16,115 nucleotides of DNA from a virus: UHGV virus genome UHGV-1642828. One strand, written 5' to 3'. The translations under genes were made by a program, and so were the position numbers. Position 1 is the stretch's first letter; the number at the start of each line of letters is the position of its first letter. Shown in pieces: positions 5,400-15,126 of the stretch. The notes under the pieces are model-generated. The model had not been told where the DNA came from and did not search any database. It saw nothing but the letters and a program-made list of their open reading frames with translations.

Positions 5400-5980
5400 G
5401 CGTTAGTTTCTCCACAGTCACGACACGCCACGGCGCCCGGAGCTGCACACTCGCGGGCGTCATTACTTTCTGAAATGCAAAAGATTTTGTAGACCAGTGC
5501 TGCATGCTCCTGCAGCTTCGAAATTGAGAGATACAGCTCGTCGTTAATTGCTGTCTTCTCATGCGGTTCCACCACACCGTCTTCGATTGCCGAACGAATC
5601 TGTCTGGAATAACTGCCAATCTGTTCAATGACTTCCAGCAGGCGCTTGTTAATATCGGCGTTGTCCACATCCTCGACGTCAGGAAGAGACACAAAGACGC
5701 CATTTGCAGACTGCGCCACAGCGTCAGCAATGAAGTGAGTTCCACCAGCACGTTGCAAAACCATTGCCAATCCCAGCGGGAAAATCTGATCGCCATCGGC
5801 ACGAAGGCGGTTAAATAATGCGTTCTCTGTTACATCCAGCCAGTCAGCAGCTTCAGCGTAACCACCCGGCAACGCCGCGATAGTTTTTCTGACAGCTTTC
5901 ACGTACCACTCAGGCTGTTTTTCTACTTTCCAGTGATGCTTACCCACGGCTATCTCCTTAAAACTGTGGTTACTTTCCAT
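5396..5980 (-). CDS. YdaT-like protein (cII-position regulator of Rac-type prophages)
   Basis: 194-aa ORF immediately downstream of and overlapping the YdaS/Cro-like gene, in the same arrangement as ydaS-ydaT in the Rac prophage. Assignment is by synteny and general resemblance only. Confidence 0.5.
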
Positions 5981-6218
5981 CTGATAAGTCTTTAATCTTT
6001 TGAAAAATATCTGGACGTAATTTTTCTTTTGATACGCCAGTGGTCATTTCAATAAATATCGAGAGTTTTGCAGGGGGACGCTTTTCTCTGTTCAACCAGT
6101 TCCAGACATGTTGTTGCTTTACTAAACGACCACTGCTGGCTGTGAGCTTCCGAGCCAATTCTGATTGACCACCAGCCAGAGCGATTGCCTCTGATAAGGC
6201 TAATTGCTCAGGTGTCAT
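5970..6218 (-). CDS. Cro-like HTH regulator (YdaS/DUF1019-like)
   Basis: 82-aa ORF, first gene transcribed divergently from cI. It contains GGQSELARKL ... RLVKQQHVWNWL ... LRPDIF, resembling recalled YdaS. A GGAGA Shine-Dalgarno lies 6 nt upstream of the ATG. Confidence 0.65.
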   Translation of the reverse strand: MTPEQLALSEAIALAGGQSELARKLTASSGRLVKQQHVWNWLNREKRPPAKLSIFIEMTTGVSKEKLRPDIFQKIKDLSDGK

Positions 6219-6355
6219 AGCTTTCTCCTATCTGTAAGTAGTAAAGTTGTTGATAACTTCGATTATACAACTACAACAACTTTTATCACAACTTTTAGAT
6301 GTTGGAAAGCTAAAACATAAAGTTGTAACCTCAATAAAAACGAGGGGGATATGTT
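6219..6355. promoter_or_regulatory. Divergent promoter/operator region (OR-like) between the cro-like gene and cI
   Basis: 137-bp AT-rich spacer with repeated AAGTTGT / ACAACTT half-sites (6244-6259 AAGTTGTTGATAACTT; 6288-6304 ACAACTTTTAGATGTTG; 6320-6326). On the minus strand there is a perfect -10 TATAAT (plus 6262-6267) with TTGTGA as -35 (plus 6286-6291, 18-bp spacer), reading toward the cro-like gene. A possible weak cI promoter lies toward 6356. Confidence 0.6.
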
Positions 6356-7042
6356 GTGAAAACATTGGCAGAAAGACTAAAAAGCGAAAGAGAAAAAGCA
6401 GGAATGAGTCAGGCGCAACTAGCTGAAAAAATTGGGCTTTCACAACAATCCGTAGCGAAAATCGAGAATGGAGAAACTCAACAGCCTCGGAAAATTAAAG
6501 AGATTGCTAAAGTGTTAGGGGTTTCTCAAAAGTGGTTGCAATTGGGCATTGAGGATAACGCGTCTTTCCCAGACCTTGTTGTAAAGGAGGCTGAAAGTAC
6601 AGCATTAGATCCTGACATTTTTGCAAACATTCCAGTCCTAGATGTCGAGTTATCAGCGGGTAATGGATGTTTGGCTGAAATAGTTGAATCAACTGTAGAC
6701 TGGTTCCCGCTAAGAAGGATTGATTTAAGAAAAGCTGGTGTATGTGTCTCCAATGCAAAGATCGTAAAAATTTGGGGCAATAGTTTACTACCTGTACTTA
6801 ACAATGGAGATTTTGTTGCTGTTGATGTTTCCCAAACGGTTCCTATTCGTGATGGGGATCTTTATGCCATACGTGATGGCGTATTACTTAGAGTTAAAAT
6901 ATTGATCAATTTACCTGACGGTGGTCTGATTCTAAGAAGTTTCAATAAAGATGAGTATCCAGATGAAATACTCACCTTCGAAGATAGGCGTTCAAGAATT
7001 CACGTTATAGGTAGAGTATTCTGGTCATCGCGCACTTGGTAA
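6356..7042 (+). CDS. cI: cI-type prophage repressor (HTH XRE domain + LexA-like S24 autopeptidase domain)
   Basis: 228-aa ORF with a GTG start preceded by GAGGGGGA. It has an N-terminal HTH (MSQAQLAEKIGLSQQSVAKIENGE), an Ala-Gly cleavage site (LSAGNG), a Ser in GNSLLP and a Lys in LRVKIL, which is the LexA/cI autocleavage architecture. Confidence 0.85.
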   Translation: MKTLAERLKSEREKAGMSQAQLAEKIGLSQQSVAKIENGETQQPRKIKEIAKVLGVSQKWLQLGIEDNASFPDLVVKEAESTALDPDIFANIPVLDVELSAGNGCLAEIVESTVDWFPLRRIDLRKAGVCVSNAKIVKIWGNSLLPVLNNGDFVAVDVSQTVPIRDGDLYAIRDGVLLRVKILINLPDGGLILRSFNKDEYPDEILTFEDRRSRIHVIGRVFWSSRTW

Positions 7043-7225
7043 TGCATCAAAAAACCTTCCTTCAGAAATTTAGTTACCATTATTACCCGCCTTTTCAATC
7101 TTCCTCCCGTGATTTGAGAGTTTCCAATCACGGAAGGAAAGTGTCCCTTGTGTAATTAAAAGCGCATCGTCCATACAACCTCCTTTTTTGATAACCCTTG
7201 CCCTCATTTCACATCCGTCAAAACC

Positions 7226-7290
7226 ACATAAAGTTGTTGACAACAACCAAAACAACAACTAGATTACAACTTAAAGATGTTGCAGTAACG
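7226..7290. promoter_or_regulatory. OL/PL-like operator-promoter for the plus-strand early operon
   Basis: Consensus -35 TTGACA at 7237-7242 and -10 TAGATT at 7260-7265 (17-bp spacer). A perfect 13-bp palindrome TTGTTGACAACAA (7235-7247) overlaps the -35, and the 17-bp element ACAACTTAAAGATGTTG (7266-7282) at the start site matches the OR-region copy at 15 of 17 positions. Confidence 0.55.
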
Positions 7291-7383
7291 AACAGGCAGG
7301 ACGCCCACGAAGTAGCCGCCGGTGGCGTATGAATGACCGGATGATTCGCTGACAGAAAACTTAGGTTGGGGGTAGAGGTTTAC

Positions 7384-7749
7384 ATGAATCATTTATTCAC
7401 ATGCTCATTTTGCGGAGCAACCGAACTGGGAGCGATAAAGATCGTCGCAAAAGGTGGTAAGGACGAACCTGCCATCTGTTCGGAATGCGTAGTCACATGT
7501 GTAGAAAAAATGATCCTGACTAAAAAATCAGAGGCTGAAAAACCAACCTCTGATAACGAAATAATATCAGTCGATAAAAAACTATTTAAAGAGCTTCTTC
7601 AGCTTGTCCTCAACCTTCCTGATTTCGGAAGTAAGCTGGCTGCTGTTGACATTGATAGTAGCTCCACATCGACAAGTGAAACTTTTGTTCGACTTGAGCC
7701 AAGCGATTTTCTTCTTCGTCTTAGTGCCGCACTTAGGGCATGCGGGTAA
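7384..7749 (+). CDS. Small protein with an N-terminal ClpX-type C4 zinc-finger motif
   Basis: Starts MNHLFTCSFCGATELGAIKIVAKGGKDEPAICSECVVTCVEKMI; compare the recalled ClpX N-domain [36 protein letters not shown]. GAGG lies 6 nt upstream of the ATG at 7384; the longer ORF from 7366 uses TTG and has no Shine-Dalgarno. It is the first gene after the PL-like promoter. Confidence 0.55.
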   Translation: MNHLFTCSFCGATELGAIKIVAKGGKDEPAICSECVVTCVEKMILTKKSEAEKPTSDNEIISVDKKLFKELLQLVLNLPDFGSKLAAVDIDSSSTSTSETFVRLEPSDFLLRLSAALRACG

Positions 7750-7922: not shown

Positions 7923-8091
7923 CAGGGCACAACAGAAAAGGGCATCACCGGGCGACGGGCTCATAACCCAATCCACCCGGGCAAAAAGAAAGCGGTCTCT
8001 GCAAGCCGCCGACCAATGCAGGTGCCCTTCTCTGTTGTGTATGGAGAAACTAACTTTTTAGCGCCGGTGCAGAGGCGTTGAGGAACCGAGA

Positions 8092-9009
8092 ATGAACAAT
8101 CCGTTTTTCAAAAATATGTTGGTGTATCGCATTAATCGCGATTTCACCATCAACCAGGAAGAGCTGGAACAGCAGCTTGAACTATTTCGCTTCACTCCAT
8201 GCGGTAGCCAGGATATGGCAAAAACCGGTTGGGTATCACCACTTGGTCAGCTGTCAGATCGCTTGCATCACACTGTCAATAATCAAGTGTTGTTGGTTAT
8301 TCGCCGGGAAGAAAAAATACTGCCATCTCCTGTCATTGCTGAAGAACTGCGCAAGCGTGTGTCGCGTCTGGAATCCGATCAGGGGCGTCGCCTCAAAAAA
8401 ACTGAGAAAGATTCGCTGCGTGATGAAGTGTTGCACTCCCTGCTTCCTCGGGCGTTCTCCAAAAACTCGACTGTTAGTTTGTGGATCAACGTCACCGACG
8501 GTCTGATCATGGTTGATGCAGCCAGCGCTAAACGTGCCGAAGACTCACTGGCCCTGCTTCGTAAAACTCTCGGTTCTCTCCCGGTGGTACCGCTGACTAT
8601 GGAAACGCCGATCGAACTAACTATGACCGAATGGGTTCGTTCCGGTAGTGCGCCTGCTGGCTTTGGCCTGGGTGATGAAGCCGAACTGAAAGCTATTCTT
8701 GAAGATGGTGGTATTGGACGCTTTAAAAAACAGACTCTGGTCAGTGACGAAATTCATGTGCATCTGGAAGCTGGCAAAGTAGTTACAAAGCTGTCTATCG
8801 ACTGGCAACAGCGCATTCAGTTCGTTCTTTGCGATGACGGCAGCATCAAACGCCTTAAGTTCTCTAATGAGATTACAGAACAAAACGACGATATCGACCG
8901 TGAGGATGCGGCTCAGAGGTTCGACGCTGACTTTGTTCTGATGACCGGCGAGCTTATCTCTCTCATTAACGGATTAACAACCTCTCTCGGCGGCGAAGCC
9001 AAGCGATAA
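8092..9009 (+). CDS. rdgC: Recombination-associated protein RdgC homolog
   Basis: 305-aa ORF with long identities to E. coli RdgC ([117 protein letters not shown]). GAGGAA Shine-Dalgarno upstream. Confidence 0.9.
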
Positions 9010-9117
9010 ACACCAGGCAACAATTACCCCCATAAGCATGGGTTGGGTTGCTGCACGCTAAATTCAGCAATTCATTAATTTAATGGCGCGGTGCAGCGCG
9101 CCAATATGGAGAAAACC

Positions 9118-9657
9118 ATGAGCTACATTCAGACATTATCCGGCAAACATTTTAATTACCTCGATATCCAACAGGACGATATCGTGATCGAGGATATTGC
9201 TACCGCGTTGTCTCATATCTGCCGCTTTGCAGGGCATCTTCCTGAGTTTTACAGCGTCGGCCAGCATAGCGTTTTAACCAGCCATCTCGTTCCGCAGGAG
9301 TTTGCCTTAGAAGCACTGCTTCATGATGCCGCCGAAGCCTACCTGCAAGATATTCCCTCACCGCTTAAGCGCCTGTTACCGGATTACCAGGTGATCGAAG
9401 CTCGCGTAGACGCTGCTATTCGCCAGAAATTTGGCCTACCGACGGAGCAACACCCAACAGTGAAATATGCCGATCTGGTGATGCTCGCCAGCGAACGCCG
9501 CGATTTTGAGATTGACGAAGGTTCCGTGTGGCCATGCCTCGATGGCGTTGTCCCGACGGACCTATTCATCATCAATCCAGTTCGTCCAGGCCAGTCATAC
9601 GGCATGTTCATAAATCGCTTTAATGAGTTGATGGAGCAGCGTCAATGCGCCGCATGA
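9118..9657 (+). CDS. HD-domain phosphohydrolase
   Basis: Contains H...H (ALSHICRFAGH) followed about 35 aa later by HD (LLHDAAEAY), the metal-binding pattern of the HD superfamily. GGAGA lies 9 nt upstream of the ATG at 9118; the longest ORF starts at 9091. Confidence 0.5.
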   Translation: MSYIQTLSGKHFNYLDIQQDDIVIEDIATALSHICRFAGHLPEFYSVGQHSVLTSHLVPQEFALEALLHDAAEAYLQDIPSPLKRLLPDYQVIEARVDAAIRQKFGLPTEQHPTVKYADLVMLASERRDFEIDEGSVWPCLDGVVPTDLFIINPVRPGQSYGMFINRFNELMEQRQCAA

Positions 9658-9821
9658 AGGTAAAAGAACTCGTGGCGGAGGCGTTTGCCTCCGTGGCTGA
9701 ATTGCCACCAAAGCATGCATCGCTTATGCGCGAAGTCGCTACCAGGCTTGAAGCTACGTTCGCAGCATTAACCGAATCATTGGCGCAACTGGAACAGGAA
9801 CGTAAAGGTAAAACGCAATGA
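9654..9821 (+). CDS. Small hypothetical protein (55 aa), translationally coupled on both sides
   Basis: Not in the ORF track (below its length cutoff). ATG at 9654 overlaps the HD gene stop (ATGA) and its TGA overlaps the next gene's ATG at 9818 (ATGA). Translates MKVKELVAEAFASVAELPPKHASLMREVATRLEATFAALTESLAQLEQERKGKTQ. Confidence 0.35.
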   Translation: MKVKELVAEAFASVAELPPKHASLMREVATRLEATFAALTESLAQLEQERKGKTQ

Positions 9822-10072
9822 CCGTATTTGAATATCTCCAGGGCCACCCGAACGCCACCAGCGGTGAAATCGCAAGGGCGATGGGTAAAAAGACGCCAGC
9901 CGTAGCCAGCGCACTATCTCAGCTTTATGCAACAGGGAGAATTGTTAAGTCTGGCGCACGCGGTGGGATACCGACATACCGCGTCAATGATCTGCCGTTT
10001 GGATGCAGCAATAACTTAACGCTGATATTTAACCAGCTTCTGCGAAACGTCCGCAAAGGAGCAGCCCAATGA
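9818..10072 (+). CDS. Hypothetical small protein, possible winged-helix DNA-binding protein
   Basis: 84-aa ORF with a wHTH-like segment (ATSGEIARAMGKKTPAVASALSQLYATGRI); overlapping start/stop coupling with neighbours. Confidence 0.45.
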   Translation: MTVFEYLQGHPNATSGEIARAMGKKTPAVASALSQLYATGRIVKSGARGGIPTYRVNDLPFGCSNNLTLIFNQLLRNVRKGAAQ

Positions 10073-10386
10073 GCAAATTTACGGCATTACCAGTAGAACG
10101 CGACCAATACGGCTACTGGACTCACCCCGTCTATGAGCAATTTTGCGATGGTCGTGAATTTATCTCACCTGATGAGTTCAACGCCTGGCTGGATAAAAAC
10201 GGCCTCGAATGGACGGTAGTTTACCGGGATGAAGAAGACATCGATCCTGAAGTTGATGGTTACGATATTTCAGCCTGGCAGCCAGAATCGCCAGCCGGTG
10301 AAGGTTGGTTTGTCGGTTCAATTCACAACACCGAAGATGGCGCGGTATGCATCTGGTTACGTAACGTTGAAGGCGGTGCAGCATGA
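10069..10386 (+). CDS. Hypothetical protein
   Basis: 105-aa acidic ORF, translationally coupled (overlapping stops/starts) within the early-left operon. Confidence 0.45.
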   Translation: MSKFTALPVERDQYGYWTHPVYEQFCDGREFISPDEFNAWLDKNGLEWTVVYRDEEDIDPEVDGYDISAWQPESPAGEGWFVGSIHNTEDGAVCIWLRNVEGGAA

Positions 10387-11141
10387 CAGTCCATACACTG
10401 AAGCAATGCCGCCCGGACCAAGAAGAAACCGAGTATTTCTGGAAGTTGTTTCATGCGGCACAACGGAATGACGCTCGCTGGAACGGTAGTGAAATCAGCA
10501 TTATCGCCGATGAACTATCCCGGACGGATTTAGATCGTAATCAAAAACTGTTTCTTCTCCGTGCCTGGCAAGTGCTGGTAGACGACAAAGGTGGATTCGG
10601 GCGCTTGATGGGTGCCTTTGATACTTACGTCTACAACATGCAGGACCCTGATGATGACTGCGTAGCCTGGAAGCCTGAACTGGCTAAGCTGCTACAGGAT
10701 GGCAATCTGTTTGATGTTGTGCTGACGGCATATCAGGAGGCCTGCCATGAGGGGATCGTTAATTGGGAGGCAGCGGTATCTCTTTCTGAGGAAAACGTAG
10801 AACTGAAGCGCAAACTCTACGCAGCAGAGAATCAAATAGCAGAACTGGAGGCGCGGACGTTCAATCCTGCAATTCTAGATGTGATAGCAGAGCGCCAGCG
10901 GCAGAAAGCCGTTGAGGGCTGGACGTCTGAGCATGACGACGCCTATCAAAACAGTGAGCTGGCAGATGCTGCAGCTTGCTATGCGATTAACGCACACAAT
11001 CAAGGCCTCTCAACGCCAGCGCATTGGCCGTGGGCTCCTGATTGGTGGAAGCAATCTGGGCCGCGTCGTGACCTTGTGAAAGCTGGCGCACTTATTCTGG
11101 CCGAAATTGAACGCATAGACCGCCAGGAGGCCGCCCAATGA
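10383..11141 (+). CDS. Hypothetical protein (Trp-rich C-terminal region, coiled-coil segment)
   Basis: 252-aa ORF, coupled to neighbours; contains AENQIAELEAR and HWPWAPDWWK. No family recognised. Confidence 0.5.
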   Translation: MTVHTLKQCRPDQEETEYFWKLFHAAQRNDARWNGSEISIIADELSRTDLDRNQKLFLLRAWQVLVDDKGGFGRLMGAFDTYVYNMQDPDDDCVAWKPELAKLLQDGNLFDVVLTAYQEACHEGIVNWEAAVSLSEENVELKRKLYAAENQIAELEARTFNPAILDVIAERQRQKAVEGWTSEHDDAYQNSELADAAACYAINAHNQGLSTPAHWPWAPDWWKQSGPRRDLVKAGALILAEIERIDRQEAAQ

Positions 11142-11530
11142 GCAACATCAACAAACGCGCAACAGAGATGCTGATTGAAAACGGAGTGCTGGTTGCCGAC
11201 ACGCTGAGGCGTTTGGCTGATAACGAAATCGACTCCGATTACTTTGCTATTTGCCACACAAACGAAAACGGAACTGAAATTGAATGCGAGCTGGCAATTA
11301 CAGATTACGCACGCCAATCTGCTGGAATCGTTGATGATCTGGTAAATGCGCTGGAAGCCGCAGAGAAGCGCATTGCAGAACTGGAAGCGCGGGAAATATC
11401 GCTCCCAGAACTTAGCAGCATGCTTCATCGAACAGATTTTCACGAGGATTACCAAACGGTAATGGCATACAAAGTTTCTGAGGTCATCGCTGCAATCCGC
11501 GCCGCTGGCATTCGCATCAAAGGAGAGTGA
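11138..11530 (+). CDS. Hypothetical protein
   Basis: 130-aa ORF, coupled; shares the EKRIAELEAR heptad-like motif with the preceding gene. Confidence 0.5.
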   Translation: MSNINKRATEMLIENGVLVADTLRRLADNEIDSDYFAICHTNENGTEIECELAITDYARQSAGIVDDLVNALEAAEKRIAELEAREISLPELSSMLHRTDFHEDYQTVMAYKVSEVIAAIRAAGIRIKGE

Positions 11531-11531
11531 T

Positions 11532-11966
11532 ATGGCGTTAACACACCGCGAACTCTGTCAGATTGCGTACAAGTTCCTTAAGCGCAACGGGTTCAAGGTT
11601 TGTTTTCATGACCGCTTTATAGCTGTAACCAGTACCGGAGAACAGCCAGATGCTATGGGATTCAGAAATTCAGCATCATGCCTGATAGAGGCGAAATGTT
11701 CTCGTGCTGACTTGTTGGCAGATAGAAAAAAGCGTTTTCGTAAAAATCCGTCTCTTGGAATGGGCGACTGGCGATTCTTTATTAGTGAGCCGGGAATTAT
11801 TTCAATTGAGGATTTACCACCTGGCTGGGGATTACTTCACGTTGTTAACGGAAGAGTACGGAAAGTGCATGGGTGCCCAAGGGTAATTGCTGTTGGGGTA
11901 ATCCTGACGATAAGCCATTTACTGGAAATAAGCAGGTTGAATGCGATTACATGTTATCTGCATTAA
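11532..11966 (+). CDS. Hypothetical protein with a possible PD-(D/E)xK nuclease-like motif; the 3' end may be frameshifted
   Basis: 144-aa ORF containing GEQPDAMGF...CLIEAKCS (a D ... ExK arrangement). A second reading frame opening after the stop at 11846-11848 encodes a plausible C-terminus (...GNCCWGNPDDKPFTGNKQVECDYMLSALRRMELRGHLNEIYDGVIVNKKEGNAA) and ends at 12044-12046 in an ATGA overlap with the next gene. Confidence 0.4.
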   Translation: MALTHRELCQIAYKFLKRNGFKVCFHDRFIAVTSTGEQPDAMGFRNSASCLIEAKCSRADLLADRKKRFRKNPSLGMGDWRFFISEPGIISIEDLPPGWGLLHVVNGRVRKVHGCPRVIAVGVILTISHLLEISRLNAITCYLH

Positions 11967-12042
11967 GGCGCATGGAGTTGAGAGGGCACCTTAATGAAAT
12001 ATATGACGGTGTAATTGTTAATAAGAAAGAAGGAAACGCGGC

Positions 12043-12744
12043 ATGATCACTATTACCAAAGAGCGACTGCTGACAATCAAGCAGTGGCGCGAAACATACG
12101 GACCTGGTAGCAACGTTGTACTGCCAGCAGAAGAAGCGGAAGAACTGGCACGAATTGCTCTGGCATCGCTGGAAGCAGAGCCTATTGGTGAGGTTTCAGA
12201 GAAGCGACTCGGCCTTGTTATGGATGGAACGGTAGACCTTGGCGGGAAATCAACTTATCGCATCATTAAGGGAGAAAAAGCGATGAAGTTGTTGCCGCTG
12301 GGGACGAAGTTTTATGCCGCCCCTCCAGTGCCAGTAGTACCGGAAGAAAAACCAATGCCTAATCCTCTTAGCATGTACGCGGTTGATGCTTTTGCCGCTA
12401 TTGCAGAGGTGAGAGGCTGGAACGCCTGCCGTGCCGCTATGCTTCAGGGTAAATCCGAACAACCACAAAACGCACAACAAAATATTCCGGAAAATATTCA
12501 CGGTGGCAACTCTCCGGTAACTCCGGATGGTTGGATAAGCTGTAGTGATCGAATGCCGGAAAAGAATCAGAACGTGCTTATTTCAGTGAATTTCGATAGC
12601 TCTCTGGTTGAACCGCTAATATGCTCCGCACGCTATACCGGAAGCACCTTTCGGCGCGGAGATGCAACGATTAAGCCGGGTAATGGTATTGAGCAAGCAA
12701 CTCACTGGATGCCGCTACCGGAACCGCCGCAGGAGGTGAAGTAA
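12043..12744 (+). CDS. DUF551-like phage protein
   Basis: 233-aa ORF whose C-terminal part (GWISCSDRMPEKNQNVLISV ... ATHWMPLPEPPQEV) matches the recalled DUF551 signature ending in W.PLPEPP. Confidence 0.5.
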   Translation: MITITKERLLTIKQWRETYGPGSNVVLPAEEAEELARIALASLEAEPIGEVSEKRLGLVMDGTVDLGGKSTYRIIKGEKAMKLLPLGTKFYAAPPVPVVPEEKPMPNPLSMYAVDAFAAIAEVRGWNACRAAMLQGKSEQPQNAQQNIPENIHGGNSPVTPDGWISCSDRMPEKNQNVLISVNFDSSLVEPLICSARYTGSTFRRGDATIKPGNGIEQATHWMPLPEPPQEVK

Positions 12745-13316
12745 TGAATAACTTAATGATCGACCTTGAGACGATGGGGAAAAATAAGGATGCACCGATC
12801 GTTTCCATTGGCGCGGTGTTCTTCACTCCAGAAACCGGAGACATCGAACAAGAATTCTATACGGTTGTTAGCCTGGAAAGTGCTATGGAGCAAGGAGCTA
12901 CACCTGACGGCGATACCATCCTGTGGTGGTTGAAACAGAGCTCTGAAGCACGAGCTGCAATCTGTATTGATGATACTTTGTCGATCAGCGATGCACTCTC
13001 TGAACTGAGCCATTTCATTAATCAGCATGCAGACAATACAAAATATTTAAAAGTCTGGGGTAACGGGGCCACCTTCGACAACGTAATTTTACGTGGAGCT
13101 TACGAGCGAGCAGGACAAATCTGCCCGTGGGCGTACTGGAATGACCACGATGTACGCACGATCATTACGCTTGGGCGTTCCATCGGATTCGACCCAAAAA
13201 TGGACATGCCTTTCGATGGCGAACGGCACAACGCCCTGGCTGATGCCCGTCATCAGGCAAAATATGTTTCCGCTATCTGGCAGAAACTAATTCCTGCCAC
13301 CAGCACAGAATTATGA
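12744..13316 (+). CDS. 3'-5' exonuclease (DEDDh / DnaQ-like fold)
   Basis: 190-aa ORF with N-terminal IDLETMG (Asp-x-Glu) and C-terminal HNALADARHQ (His-x4-Asp), as in DEDDh exonucleases. TAATG overlap with the upstream gene. Confidence 0.65.
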   Translation: MNNLMIDLETMGKNKDAPIVSIGAVFFTPETGDIEQEFYTVVSLESAMEQGATPDGDTILWWLKQSSEARAAICIDDTLSISDALSELSHFINQHADNTKYLKVWGNGATFDNVILRGAYERAGQICPWAYWNDHDVRTIITLGRSIGFDPKMDMPFDGERHNALADARHQAKYVSAIWQKLIPATSTEL

Positions 13317-13352
13317 TTTTCCCGGGTGCAGCCGGTTTTGATGGAGAAAATT

Positions 13353-13634
13353 ATGAACACCTTGTTTTTACTGATGGCTGAATTCAATACCCCTAACATT
13401 GAACTCTCAGCAGTTAGCCAGAAGTACTTTGGCATGAGTCCAGCCACGGCAGAAGCAAAAGCAAACGCTTGTAAGTTGCCCGTTCCAACATATCGCATCG
13501 GCACATCACAAAAAGCAAAACGTTGCATCAATATTCAGGATCTTGCGGAATACATAGACAAAAGACGAGAAGAAGGACGTATCGAGTGGGAACAGGTCAG
13601 AACAGGCAAACAGAAGGGCAAAGAACATCACTAA
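13353..13634 (+). CDS. PrtN-family / excisionase-like DNA-binding protein
   Basis: ORF track gives 13326..13634; GGAGA 5 nt upstream favours the ATG at 13353 (MNTLFLLMAEF...). It is the last gene of the early-left operon, followed directly by a terminator. Family assignment is from recalled PrtN-type excisionase resemblance. Confidence 0.5.
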   Translation: MNTLFLLMAEFNTPNIELSAVSQKYFGMSPATAEAKANACKLPVPTYRIGTSQKAKRCINIQDLAEYIDKRREEGRIEWEQVRTGKQKGKEHH

Positions 13635-13636
13635 AG

Positions 13637-13663
13637 AAAAAACCCGCCTGAAGGCGGGTTTTC
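13637..13663. terminator. Bidirectional rho-independent terminator
   Basis: AAAAAA-CCCGCC-TGAA-GGCGGG-TTTTC: a perfect 6-bp GC stem (13643-13648 / 13653-13658) with a 4-nt loop, flanked by an A-run and a T-run. It terminates both the plus-strand operon and the convergent small minus-strand gene. Confidence 0.75.
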
Positions 13664-13681
13664 AAAAAGCACCAGCTATGA

Positions 13682-13855
13682 TCATGCTGCTTTGCGACGA
13701 CGAAGCTTACCCTGCTGCTCTTTACCAGAGACAGTAGCGTGAGTGAACGCATTAGGAGCAGCCTTCATCAGAACTTCAACAGCAGCACCCATACCTGCGA
13801 ATGCTTTCATTGTGTCGAACTTAACCTGTGGCTTGGTTGCTTTTTGATCTTTCAT
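13682..13855 (-). CDS. Small hypothetical protein (57 aa)
   Basis: Not in the ORF track (below its length cutoff). ATG at 13855-13853 with GGGAG about 8 nt upstream. Translates MKDQKATKPQVKFDTMKAFAGMGAAVEVLMKAAPNAFTHATVSGKEQQGKLRRRKAA and ends just before the bidirectional terminator. Confidence 0.4.
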   Translation of the reverse strand: MKDQKATKPQVKFDTMKAFAGMGAAVEVLMKAAPNAFTHATVSGKEQQGKLRRRKAA

Positions 13856-14051
13856 AGAAAACTCCCGAGACAGTAAAGGCGTCTCTAACCCTCTCTTTAA
13901 AGCTAGCTTGTTTCGCTAACTTATGCCAATCGATCATGTCGATTGGTGACATCGTTTCTTAGTAGTTTAAGCACAAAACGACTGCCATAGATGTACCTTT
14001 AAGGTAATCTGGACGGGTATCCTACAATTTGTAGACCCTTCTCGTCTATAC

Positions 14052-14588
14052 CTACTGAGCAAATTTAAGAAAGATATCCTGCAGCTCATCAATGACTGCA
14101 GACATCACATAACCGCACTGTTCCATGCGGAAACCAAAAGACTCGTAATACTGCACCAGTTCTGGTACTGGCTCTACAATGTGGACAACTTTACATTCAA
14201 CAGCTTTACAAAATATAAAAGCACTCATAAGAGTGAGTAAAACCATGCGCCCTTTCAATGGGTGAGATTCATCTTCTCTAGAAAACCTTTCGATCATATG
14301 GATACGAAAGATGTTTTCTTCAACCCCATAAACACAAATTGCTGCTCCTGATGGTATTCCCTGAACCCGACCTTGCTGAACAAGTTTTATGCAGAACTCA
14401 TACTTTTCTCTGGAGTTGCCATAGGTGCTTAACGCATAGTCCCATTCAAGCTCACCATAGCCACCACACAGAATCTTGTAATCATCATCACTGAGCGGAC
14501 CAACAGCAAGAGGTAAGCCGACATGATCAATAATCAACTGGATATTGTTACGTACTGATTGACCTATCTCGTCCAGGGTAAGCATCAT
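14052..14588 (-). CDS. Hypothetical protein (178 aa), weak GNAT-like resemblance
   Basis: Isolated ORF in the AT-rich block; two adjacent ATG codons at the start. A minus-strand TATAAT (plus 14618-14623) lies about 25 nt upstream. It contains QQGRVQGIPSG and a C-terminal VQYYESFGF, loosely reminiscent of GNAT motifs A and B. Confidence 0.45.
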   Translation of the reverse strand: MMLTLDEIGQSVRNNIQLIIDHVGLPLAVGPLSDDDYKILCGGYGELEWDYALSTYGNSREKYEFCIKLVQQGRVQGIPSGAAICVYGVEENIFRIHMIERFSREDESHPLKGRMVLLTLMSAFIFCKAVECKVVHIVEPVPELVQYYESFGFRMEQCGYVMSAVIDELQDIFLKFAQ

Positions 14589-15126
14589 GGCCTCTCAAGC
14601 GGAACACTAAAAGTCGCATTATATCTCATTCTTAAGCCGCGTATGGATTACACCTTGAAATGAAAACGCCGGGTTCCCAATAGGCTCCCACAGAGTGTAT
14701 AACTACTTGTTTTTCAACAACGGTACATCCTATCGAGCATTGGTGCAACGCTAAACCGACCACTCCAGTGAACGTCAGTTTTTTCAGGCATTGCGCTGGT
14801 TTGGTTGATTTTTTGCATTTCAGAATTACCGTGCATTTTCAAATGTAGAGATTATTTTATCGATATATCATGGGGTTATGTTATTCAGCATCACTGTTCA
14901 GGAGGCTCAATAACGGGGTACTATACCATAACAACAGGAAGCGCCTGTCTCATTGCAAAAGAAAATTGAGATCCTCTCAAGGCATGAAGCTCTCACGAAG
15001 TGATGGAAATAATCTTATTAGCCGTTAGCTTTGTTAAGGCCAATGATAAACAATCCAGGTTCGACGATAAATAAAAATCACACATTAAACTCCGGTGATA
15101 TCTCTCCCTGCTAATAGCACTGATAG

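Follow-up and report, generated by a model that had tools for sequence, protein, structure and literature searches.

Probable mosaic Ead/Ea22-like genes, linked by a conserved coiled-coil hinge, in the early-left operon of an Escherichia coli lambdoid prophage

The 16,115-nucleotide stretch of virus genome UHGV-1642828 analysed here (the window) is an Escherichia coli lambdoid (lambda-like) prophage that carries, on its + strand, five consecutive open reading frames (ORFs) named after their lengths in amino acids (aa): ORF58, ORF84, ORF105, ORF252 and ORF130. We consider it fairly probable that the five constitute the accessory part of a pL-type early-left operon and that ORF252 and ORF130 are tandem, non-identical mosaic members of the Ead/Ea22-like family, with functions assigned by analogy. 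The two proteins are linked by the peptide (I)AELEAR, which is a conserved coiled-coil hinge of that family. By the Pfam definition neither is a member; both appear from their sequences to be mosaic relatives that carry Ea22 modules.

Both proteins contain IAELEAR without a mismatch (ORF252 residues 152-158, ORF130 residues 79-85), and it is the only peptide of at least 5 aa common to any pair among the 11 operon proteins. A preliminary description of this DNA had pointed to a coiled-coil-like motif in the two neighbours, and this holds good: in ORF252, AlphaFold2 (AF2) predicts a long helix over residues 128-157, and the motif lies where it ends. In the DNA, it lies at the end of a direct repeat.

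10821..10856, + strand: hinge repeat copy 1 (reference), 36 nucleotides (nt), with IAELEAR at nt 10836-10856.
11357..11392, + strand: hinge repeat copy 2, 36 nt, 83% identical to copy 1 (30/36), with IAELEAR at nt 11372-11392.

Similarity between ORF252 and ORF130 amounts to 12/22 aa (BLASTP E 0.002). If Ile occupies heptad position a, the two proteins agree at five of the six a/d positions in their last three heptads (L, L, A, I, L). The hinge sequences are AAENQIAELEAR in ORF252 and AAEKRIAELEAR in ORF130, that is, the family consensus; in the mosaic Ead/Ea22-like family the hinge runs '..LEAAEKRIAELEAR', with the consensus form '..AAE(K/N)(R/Q)IAELEAR'. It is conserved in homologues of both proteins and in proteins named ead/Ea22-like, and it has a counterpart in lambda Ea22; the preliminary description had made the value of the motif depend on just such conservation. 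A scan of IMG/VR for the hinge codons returned at least 106 in-frame occurrences; their flanks comprise 69 distinct 15-mers upstream and 57 downstream, and conservation drops to background within about 45 nt on each side. That two Ala/Glu-rich helices merely match by chance is scarcely credible. The sequence is indeed of low complexity (A, E, L, R), as is typical of coiled coils; however, only 1 of 3000 composition-preserving shuffles yielded a common exact 7-mer, 30 of the 36 nt are identical, and lambda Ea22 and the majority of homologues of either protein carry the same hinge. The shuffles and the homologues effectively refute a chance origin.

Around the hinge, the two proteins are built from separable modules. 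ORF252 (252 aa, 10383-11141) and ORF130 (130 aa) are both acidic, with isoelectric points (pI) of 4.7 and 4.6, respectively.

10383..10742, + strand: ORF252 N-domain, residues 1-120 ('MTVHTLKQCRPDQEETEYFWKLF...'), modelled by AF2 with low confidence.
10764..10856, + strand: ORF252 long helix in heptad register (AF2 helix 128-157), ending in the Ea22-type hinge.
10854..11141, + strand: ORF252 C-terminal 'EHDD/WPW/AEIERIDR' helical domain, residues 158-252, predicted local distance difference test (pLDDT) score 82-96.
11138..11530, + strand: ORF130, a probable short Ead/Ea22-like mosaic with MSNINK start, EaD-type module (residues 12-75), hinge (79-85) and short C-domain ending AGIRIKGE.

A homologue search with ORF252 gave 2876 hits, nearly all with its first ~120 residues, in which '..Q(R/Q)IAELEA(R)' is followed by many unrelated C-terminal parts; most end AAGI(G/K)VKGE. 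Among the best 120 hits the N-domain is present in 118, and 109 of those carry the hinge. The ORF252 C-domain follows in 39 of these 109, and in the other 70 there are different C-terminal parts, with at least 39 distinct continuations beginning directly after the hinge. One homologue, P0051 (204 aa), joins the ORF252 N-domain and hinge to an ORF130-like C-terminal domain, and hence the modules appear to be combined freely. When the C-terminal 93 residues of ORF252 served as query, ~150-aa proteins named 'ead/Ea22-like family protein' were retrieved, several of them with PF13935; in P0121, P0167 and P0205 a classical Ea22 N-terminus ('MSNIDKQALR..LLDELEAAEKRIAELEARAFNPAILDVIAERQRQ..') precedes the hinge and an ORF252-type C-domain. 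ORF130 is itself named 'ead/Ea22-like family protein' by the Prokaryotic Genome Annotation Pipeline (PGAP). Its residues 12-75 form a module inside a 229-aa Ea22-like protein of phage RCS47, and its C-terminal part is found again in HK633 and phi191, in their ead/Ea22-like proteins. The description of all five genes as unknown can therefore be amended for three of them: ORF130 through its PGAP name, ORF252 through the occurrence of its C-domain in PF13935-carrying proteins, and ORF84 through its probable MarR-like character. The families can be named, and well-characterised families with mundane functions were not what the five proteins mapped to.

The preliminary description had also raised the possibility that the pair derives from a duplication. 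A recent tandem duplication of one gene, of which the motif would be the remnant, accords with the adjacent and co-oriented position of ORF252 and ORF130, with the 36 nt at 83% identity and with the same SD-ATGA-GCAA type of junction (SD, Shine-Dalgarno). Nevertheless, we regard it as very unlikely: BLASTP detects no similarity between the two outside the 22-aa hinge, in other phages each flank matches a distinct set of homologues, and the ORF252 N-domain is joined elsewhere to dozens of other C-terminal parts, which independent mosaic assembly explains better. Because nothing is common to the pair beyond the hinge and the flanks have separate homologues, we read the two as different mosaic assemblies produced by module shuffling, not by duplication in the simple sense.

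Published work on Ea22 describes a variable N-terminal segment, a coiled coil and a variable acidic C-domain in a tetrameric, pro-lysogenic protein with a +GE ending (PMC7093339, PMC10834534), this C-terminal basic-Gly-Glu (+GE) tripeptide being regarded as an Ea22 trait (PMC7093339). Its organisation is mosaic, and two or three variants often occur per genome (PMC10834534, PMC7093339). Our pair resembles Ea22 of lambda and the Ea22 variants V1-V3 of Shiga toxin (Stx) phages (PF13935 / IPR025153) in its early-left position between recombination/nuclease genes and xis, probably in its layout of N-segment, heptad helix and interchangeable acidic C-domain, and in the presence of several mosaic variants per genome. 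The position, from the nuclease genes to xis/att, is defined by the repressor, rdgC and HD genes upstream and by the exonuclease, PrtN/xis-like and dusA genes downstream. At the end of its coiled coil, lambda Ea22 reads '..SKRIAKLESNEV..' with KRIAKLESNEV, of which KRIAKLES is the counterpart of the ORF252/ORF130 hinge, and its tail AGIRIKGE is identical to that of ORF130, +GE included. There are also differences. ORF252 has a different 120-aa N-domain, a short coiled coil (~4 heptads between the N-domain and the confident C-domain) and no +GE ending, while ORF130 is almost without a coiled coil (a heptad stretch of ~3) and has an EaD-type module in its place. In this latter respect it resembles the 171-aa EaD protein of Klebsiella phage 5 LV-2017 (P22-type), with which ORF130 residues 1-76 align at 53% identity and which shows the same order of short N-terminus, 'LIxNGxxxADxLRxLADNEIDSDYFA' module and 'ALE(A/K)A'; the Klebsiella protein differs in having a longer C-terminal part without RIAELEAR. 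A nuclear magnetic resonance structure of the lambda Ea22 C-domain has been published, whereas neither C-domain of our pair matches any solved chain. Searches of the ORF252 and ORF130 sequences against the PDB were empty or spurious, and the Foldseek check that the preliminary description had proposed, run with the full ORF252 model against the PDB, found nothing, the low-confidence N-domain and long helix probably spoiling such a whole-model search.

By analogy with Ea22 of lambda and Stx phages, ORF252 and ORF130 would be oligomeric early proteins. Each would begin with a variable N-terminal part, followed by an amphipathic heptad helix with the hinge at its end and by an interchangeable acidic C-domain that may engage host or phage partners and tune the outcome of lysis versus lysogeny. 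The hinge would be conserved as protein sequence, most likely in the role of terminating an oligomerising coiled coil, and would mark the border at which C-terminal modules swap between phages. An interaction between ORF252 and ORF130, as proposed in the preliminary description, is plausible in view of their identical heptad core residues and the published Ea22 tetramers (PMC10834534).

Several observations weigh against this assignment. Neither ORF252 nor ORF130 matches PF13935, even at E<=10, in a comparison in which lambda Ea22 (1.1e-28), a 217-aa Ea22-like neighbour in strain MSB1_9D (5.8e-20) and P0167 (4.8e-06) all do. ORF252 lacks the +GE ending and terminates in ..RQEAAQ; homologues with an ORF252-type C-domain end either in QEAAQ or in AAGIGVKGE. 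Even for lambda Ea22, yeast two-hybrid surveys have yielded no interaction partner (PMC10834534). Synonymous sites inside the hinge vary among viral contigs, so that what is conserved is mainly the protein sequence, and for the same reason we dropped the idea of a dedicated DNA recombination site at the hinge; recombination at this border is something that we infer from the mosaic pattern. Finally, PGAP marks ORF130 as a pseudogene ('incomplete; missing N-terminus'), and part of the block may be decaying, the next gene being frameshifted.

These last points bear on an alternative in which ORF130 is a functionless remnant of a truncated Ea22-like gene, with decay perhaps extending over the whole distal block. 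Longer relatives do exist, such as the 229-aa RCS47 protein, the exact ORF252 sequence is found on one contig only, and a related prophage has lost window positions 10428-11497 (1070 bp). We nonetheless judge this alternative unlikely, since ORF130 still has the MSNINK start, an ATGA-coupled AGGAGG site of its own, the hinge and the +GE ending, the same short layout is found in the Klebsiella EaD protein, and an identical 130-aa protein occurs on 45 contigs. The related prophage with the 1070-bp deletion is that of the sequence type (ST) 536 mussel isolate (L004, 4290-4470): the first 15 codons of ORF252 are followed by ~79 unmatched nt and then by the last 11 codons of ORF130, and the breakpoints fall outside the hinge repeats.

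As mosaic relatives of Ea22, then, ORF252 and ORF130 belong to a block in which parts of known kinds are newly combined. That ea22-type genes are mosaic and occur in several copies has already been published (PMC10834534), and the finding as stated changes little: this is an ordinary, typical lambdoid accessory block. What it does offer is a simple sequence handle, the (I)AELEAR hinge, for Ea22-type mosaics that PF13935 misses. The exact border that the hinge would provide for the swapping of C-modules can help annotation and the dissection of the lysis-lysogeny domain in Stx and other prophages.

The C-terminal EHDD/WPW domain of ORF252 has a distribution that extends far beyond this family. 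Searched as a single sequence against 1.84 billion representatives of clusters defined at 50% identity, the domain retrieved 15,331 of them at E<=1e-3, 8,655 of these at E<=1e-10. AF2 models it as a helical bundle. Copies with 45-66% identity come from Alpha-, Beta- and Gammaproteobacteria and from metagenome-assembled genomes labelled Clostridia, Verrucomicrobia and Planctomycetota; the domain is found in stand-alone proteins (101-125 aa), in membrane-anchored form and fused to many N-terminal parts. Residues E170, R173, Q174, D185, Y200, W215, P216 and E241 are invariant across phyla. Fusion partners among 66 representatives were Ead_Ea22 (12), Lar (2), PF04447 (2) and DUF551 (1), and, where they were checked, the gene neighbours were prophage genes (terminase, integrase, DNA polymerase, exonuclease). 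No Pfam model matched the domain, and PDB profile searches were empty or spurious. The number of clusters, the conservation across phyla, the stand-alone and membrane-anchored forms and the absence of any Pfam or solved relative together argue that EHDD is a real, uncharacterised domain. In proteins of ~170 aa from Bradyrhizobium, Pseudorhodoplanes and Xanthobacteraceae (L032, L034 and L038), EHDD/WPW stands behind a hydrophobic segment resembling membrane-spanning helices.

A MazG-like identity for the EHDD domain is a weak lead. Comparison with the all-alpha nucleoside triphosphate (NTP) pyrophosphohydrolases (MazG/HisE/AF0060) gave a weak structural score and no sequence or profile similarity, and the ExxE...ExxD metal motif of those enzymes is not evident. 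PF04447, the dATP/dGTP pyrophosphohydrolase family formerly called DUF550, adjoins the EHDD domain in P0459 and does not overlie it, and hhalign of the domain against a DUF550 protein returned a probability of 0.05%. It is tempting to speculate that EHDD is autonomous, as yet undescribed and very widespread in phages, that it acts as an enzyme or binds a ligand, and that its fold is possibly a divergent form of the all-alpha NTP pyrophosphohydrolase one. Phages would then deliver it on many oligomerising scaffolds, the Ea22-like one among them, and ORF105 would be a second unrecognised early effector; we hold this view to be conceivable but rather unlikely. A domain so unusually conserved and widespread, with no model, structure or function, is in any case a reasonable structural and biochemical target beyond routine annotation.

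The preliminary description had pointed out that early-left regions typically encode host-takeover, anti-defence and recombination functions. A more specific alternative holds that ORF58, ORF84, ORF105 and the EHDD domain serve host takeover or anti-defence and do not modulate lysis versus lysogeny, ORF105 as an acidic mimic or inhibitor and EHDD as an enzyme of the all-alpha NTP pyrophosphohydrolase type. The genes do lie early-left, with an HD phosphohydrolase gene next to them; ORF105, at pI 4.05, is very acidic, strongly conserved and present in phages of several genera; and EHDD has invariant residues across bacterial phyla and is sometimes fused to Lar or PF04447 domains. Against these points stand the empty Foldseek search, the negative hhalign comparison with DUF550, the empty or spurious PDB profile searches and the lack of any experimental link between these families and defence. 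PADLOC likewise returned nothing, though it does not model anti-defence proteins. We found no evidence for such a role and consider it distinctly unlikely.

Three genes lie ahead of the Ea22-like pair.

9645..9821, + strand: ORF58, a small, helical-looking basic protein; matches phrog_12248 (E 1.9e-30), a family of unknown function.
9818..10072, + strand: ORF84, 84 aa, basic (pI 10.4), probably MarR-like winged-helix; matches phrog_1687 'MarR family' (E 3.7e-24).
10069..10386, + strand: ORF105, acidic, alpha+beta; a conserved, non-mosaic phage family of ~105 aa.

Scans with Pfam, NCBIfam and PADLOC gave nothing usable for four of the five proteins, and their PHROG matches are to families of unknown function only, with the exception of the MarR-like ORF84. 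The latter scores 20.3 bits (E 6.4e-4) against Pfam MarR_2, below the 27-bit cut-off; it aligns at 39-44% identity over 94-95% of its length with genes annotated as MarR family in Stx and P88-like phages. This near-full-length alignment with small MarR-family proteins and the phrog_1687 match suggest that ORF84 is a small winged-helix DNA-binding regulator, one that, at 84 aa, would differ from MarR in comprising the winged-helix core only, without the MarR dimerisation helices. A search of the ORF84 sequence against the PDB was empty or spurious. ORF58 and ORF105 are conserved phage proteins of uncharacterised families. The ORF105 family is uniform in length, with C26, H86 and C94 invariant and H19 near-invariant, and these four residues may bind a metal; its members are also found in phages of Klebsiella, Dickeya, Pectobacterium, Erwinia, Burkholderia and Nitrincola. 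ORF105 gave no fold match, and its profile search against the PDB was empty or spurious.

All five of the ATGA-joined ORFs listed in the preliminary description are present on the + strand (9645/9654-9821; 9818-10072; 10069-10386; 10383-11141; 11138-11530), and four junctions, at 9818, 10069, 10383 and 11138, are ATGA overlaps of 4 nt. The head of the string requires revision. What had been given as a 55-aa ORF, joined to the HD gene by an ATGA overlap from ATG 9654, may also be read from ATG 9645 as 58 aa with a 13-nt overlap, and it is from this start that we count ORF58. The start at 9645 is the more probable one: a GGAG lies 8 nt upstream of it and 17 nt from 9654, PGAP calls it, the cluster members listed are all 58 aa long, and the 55-aa version aligns with PHROG profile positions 4-57. 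Shine-Dalgarno-like AAGG, GGAG or AGGAGG sites stand 7-10 nt upstream of each start, inside the preceding gene. The five genes would share one transcript and be coupled in translation through their stop/start overlaps and internal Shine-Dalgarno sites. Several 4-nt overlaps also occur in the opposite-strand operon of the window; as such overlaps are common throughout, ATGA coupling is unremarkable in itself.

Ratios of nonsynonymous to synonymous substitution (dN/dS) against relatives, at 0.19 for ORF58 (versus Nissle 1917), 0.11 for ORF84 and 0.38 for ORF252, indicate that these are real genes under purifying selection. The exact sequences of ORF58, ORF84 and ORF105 are each found on at least 1000 contigs, yet only 45 of 5426 complete E. 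coli genomes carry the ORF58-ORF84-ORF105 block. In Nissle 1917, a different Ea22-like gene comes after the ORF58-ORF84 pair, with the switch exactly at the ORF84 stop; hence mosaic joints fall at gene boundaries too. Similarity to strain MSB1_9D stops at 11156, just inside ORF130. A repeat search further identified a sequence common to two of the gene boundaries.

10051..10076, + strand: gene-boundary repeat copy 1 (SD...CCCAATGAGCAA), at the ORF84/ORF105 junction.
11120..11145, + strand: gene-boundary repeat copy 2, 81% identical to copy 1, at the ORF252/ORF130 junction.

The window has its closest relative in the prophage of the E. coli O68:H12 strain 97.3 chromosome (NZ_CP061758.1), to which positions 9000-13400 are 100% identical and the remainder 98-99.5%, except for the immunity region 5460-7286. 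Strain 97.3, otherwise the closest genome, offers no match to this region (cI-like, Cro/YdaS-like and part of CII-like), and thus the window derives from a relative with a different immunity module. The surrounding + strand features are as follows.

6356-7042, + strand: cI-like repressor gene (HTH_3 and Peptidase_S24).
7237..7265, + strand: pL-like sigma-70 promoter candidate just downstream of the cI-like gene, TTGACA-17-TAGATT, 10/12 consensus; a consensus match only.
7366-7749, + strand: ClpX-zinc-finger protein gene, with a ClpX-type C4 zinc finger (Pfam 26.0, just under the 27-bit cut-off).
8092-9009, + strand: rdgC.
9091..9657 (PGAP start 9118), + strand: HD-type phosphohydrolase gene, phrog_318 'deoxyribonucleoside 5' monophosphate phosphatase' (E 3.7e-98).
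11532..12046, + strand: gene after ORF130, 'frameshifted' according to PGAP; PHROG 631/9263 cover residues 1-118 only.
12043..12744, + strand: DUF551 gene (PF04448, E 4e-22).
12744..13316, + strand: 3'-5' exonuclease gene (PF16473 Rv2179c-like, E 2.5e-74), which closes the block.

The repressor, the promoter match, the gene order and the attachment side establish the region as the early-left operon of a lambdoid prophage, at the place of the lambda exo-xis/ea genes, of which the block would be the functional counterpart. Along the + strand the order is ClpX-zinc-finger gene, rdgC, HD, the five ORFs, frameshifted gene, DUF551, exonuclease and a PrtN/excisionase-like gene, with a dusA remnant (about 14732-14837; attachment side) downstream of the last. 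The cI-like repressor is encoded on the same strand, the Cro-like (YdaS) and CII-like genes lie on the - strand opposite it, and no + strand terminator-like site with a stem of >5 bp was found in 8000-13600, all of which bears out the description of a coupled, co-oriented early-left string. The placement of the string between rdgC/HD and the exonuclease is roughly right, the frameshifted gene and the DUF551 gene separating ORF130 from the exonuclease. Scans of the whole window against Rfam and for tRNA genes gave no hits.

The DUF551 protein, which begins 'MITITKERL...ELARIALASLEAE', shares its N-terminal 'ELARIALASLEA' module with P0236, where this module stands ahead of the hinge and the EHDD domain; the DUF551 gene may thus be a third mosaic relative in the operon. 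A DUF551-bearing Ea22 variant, V2, has been described (PMC10834534). The Pfam YfbR-like match of the HD phosphohydrolase is weak.

The ClpX-zinc-finger gene is the first after the pL-like promoter, an unusual first early-left gene at the place that N holds in lambda. In the frameshifted gene, 'PDAMGF...CLIEAKCSRAD' resembles, by eye only, a PD-(D/E)xK nuclease motif, and the related prophage of the mussel isolate (L004) holds the same frameshifted copy of the 11532-12046 gene. Between the PrtN/excisionase-like gene and the dusA remnant (window 13326-14837) there is no integrase gene. Strains AH02 and CT01 carry a closely related region (89.4% identity over the matching 39% of the query) in the chromosome as well as in separate 43.7-kb records (NZ_CP081704.1, NZ_CP081794.1), which suggests an excised or episomal form of a related prophage. 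Lastly, a 32-nt direct repeat of 72% identity (GGTGCAGC...GGAGAAAA..ATGA) lies at 9090-9121 and 13325-13356, at the starts of the HD and PrtN-like genes, and may be another conserved gene-boundary sequence.

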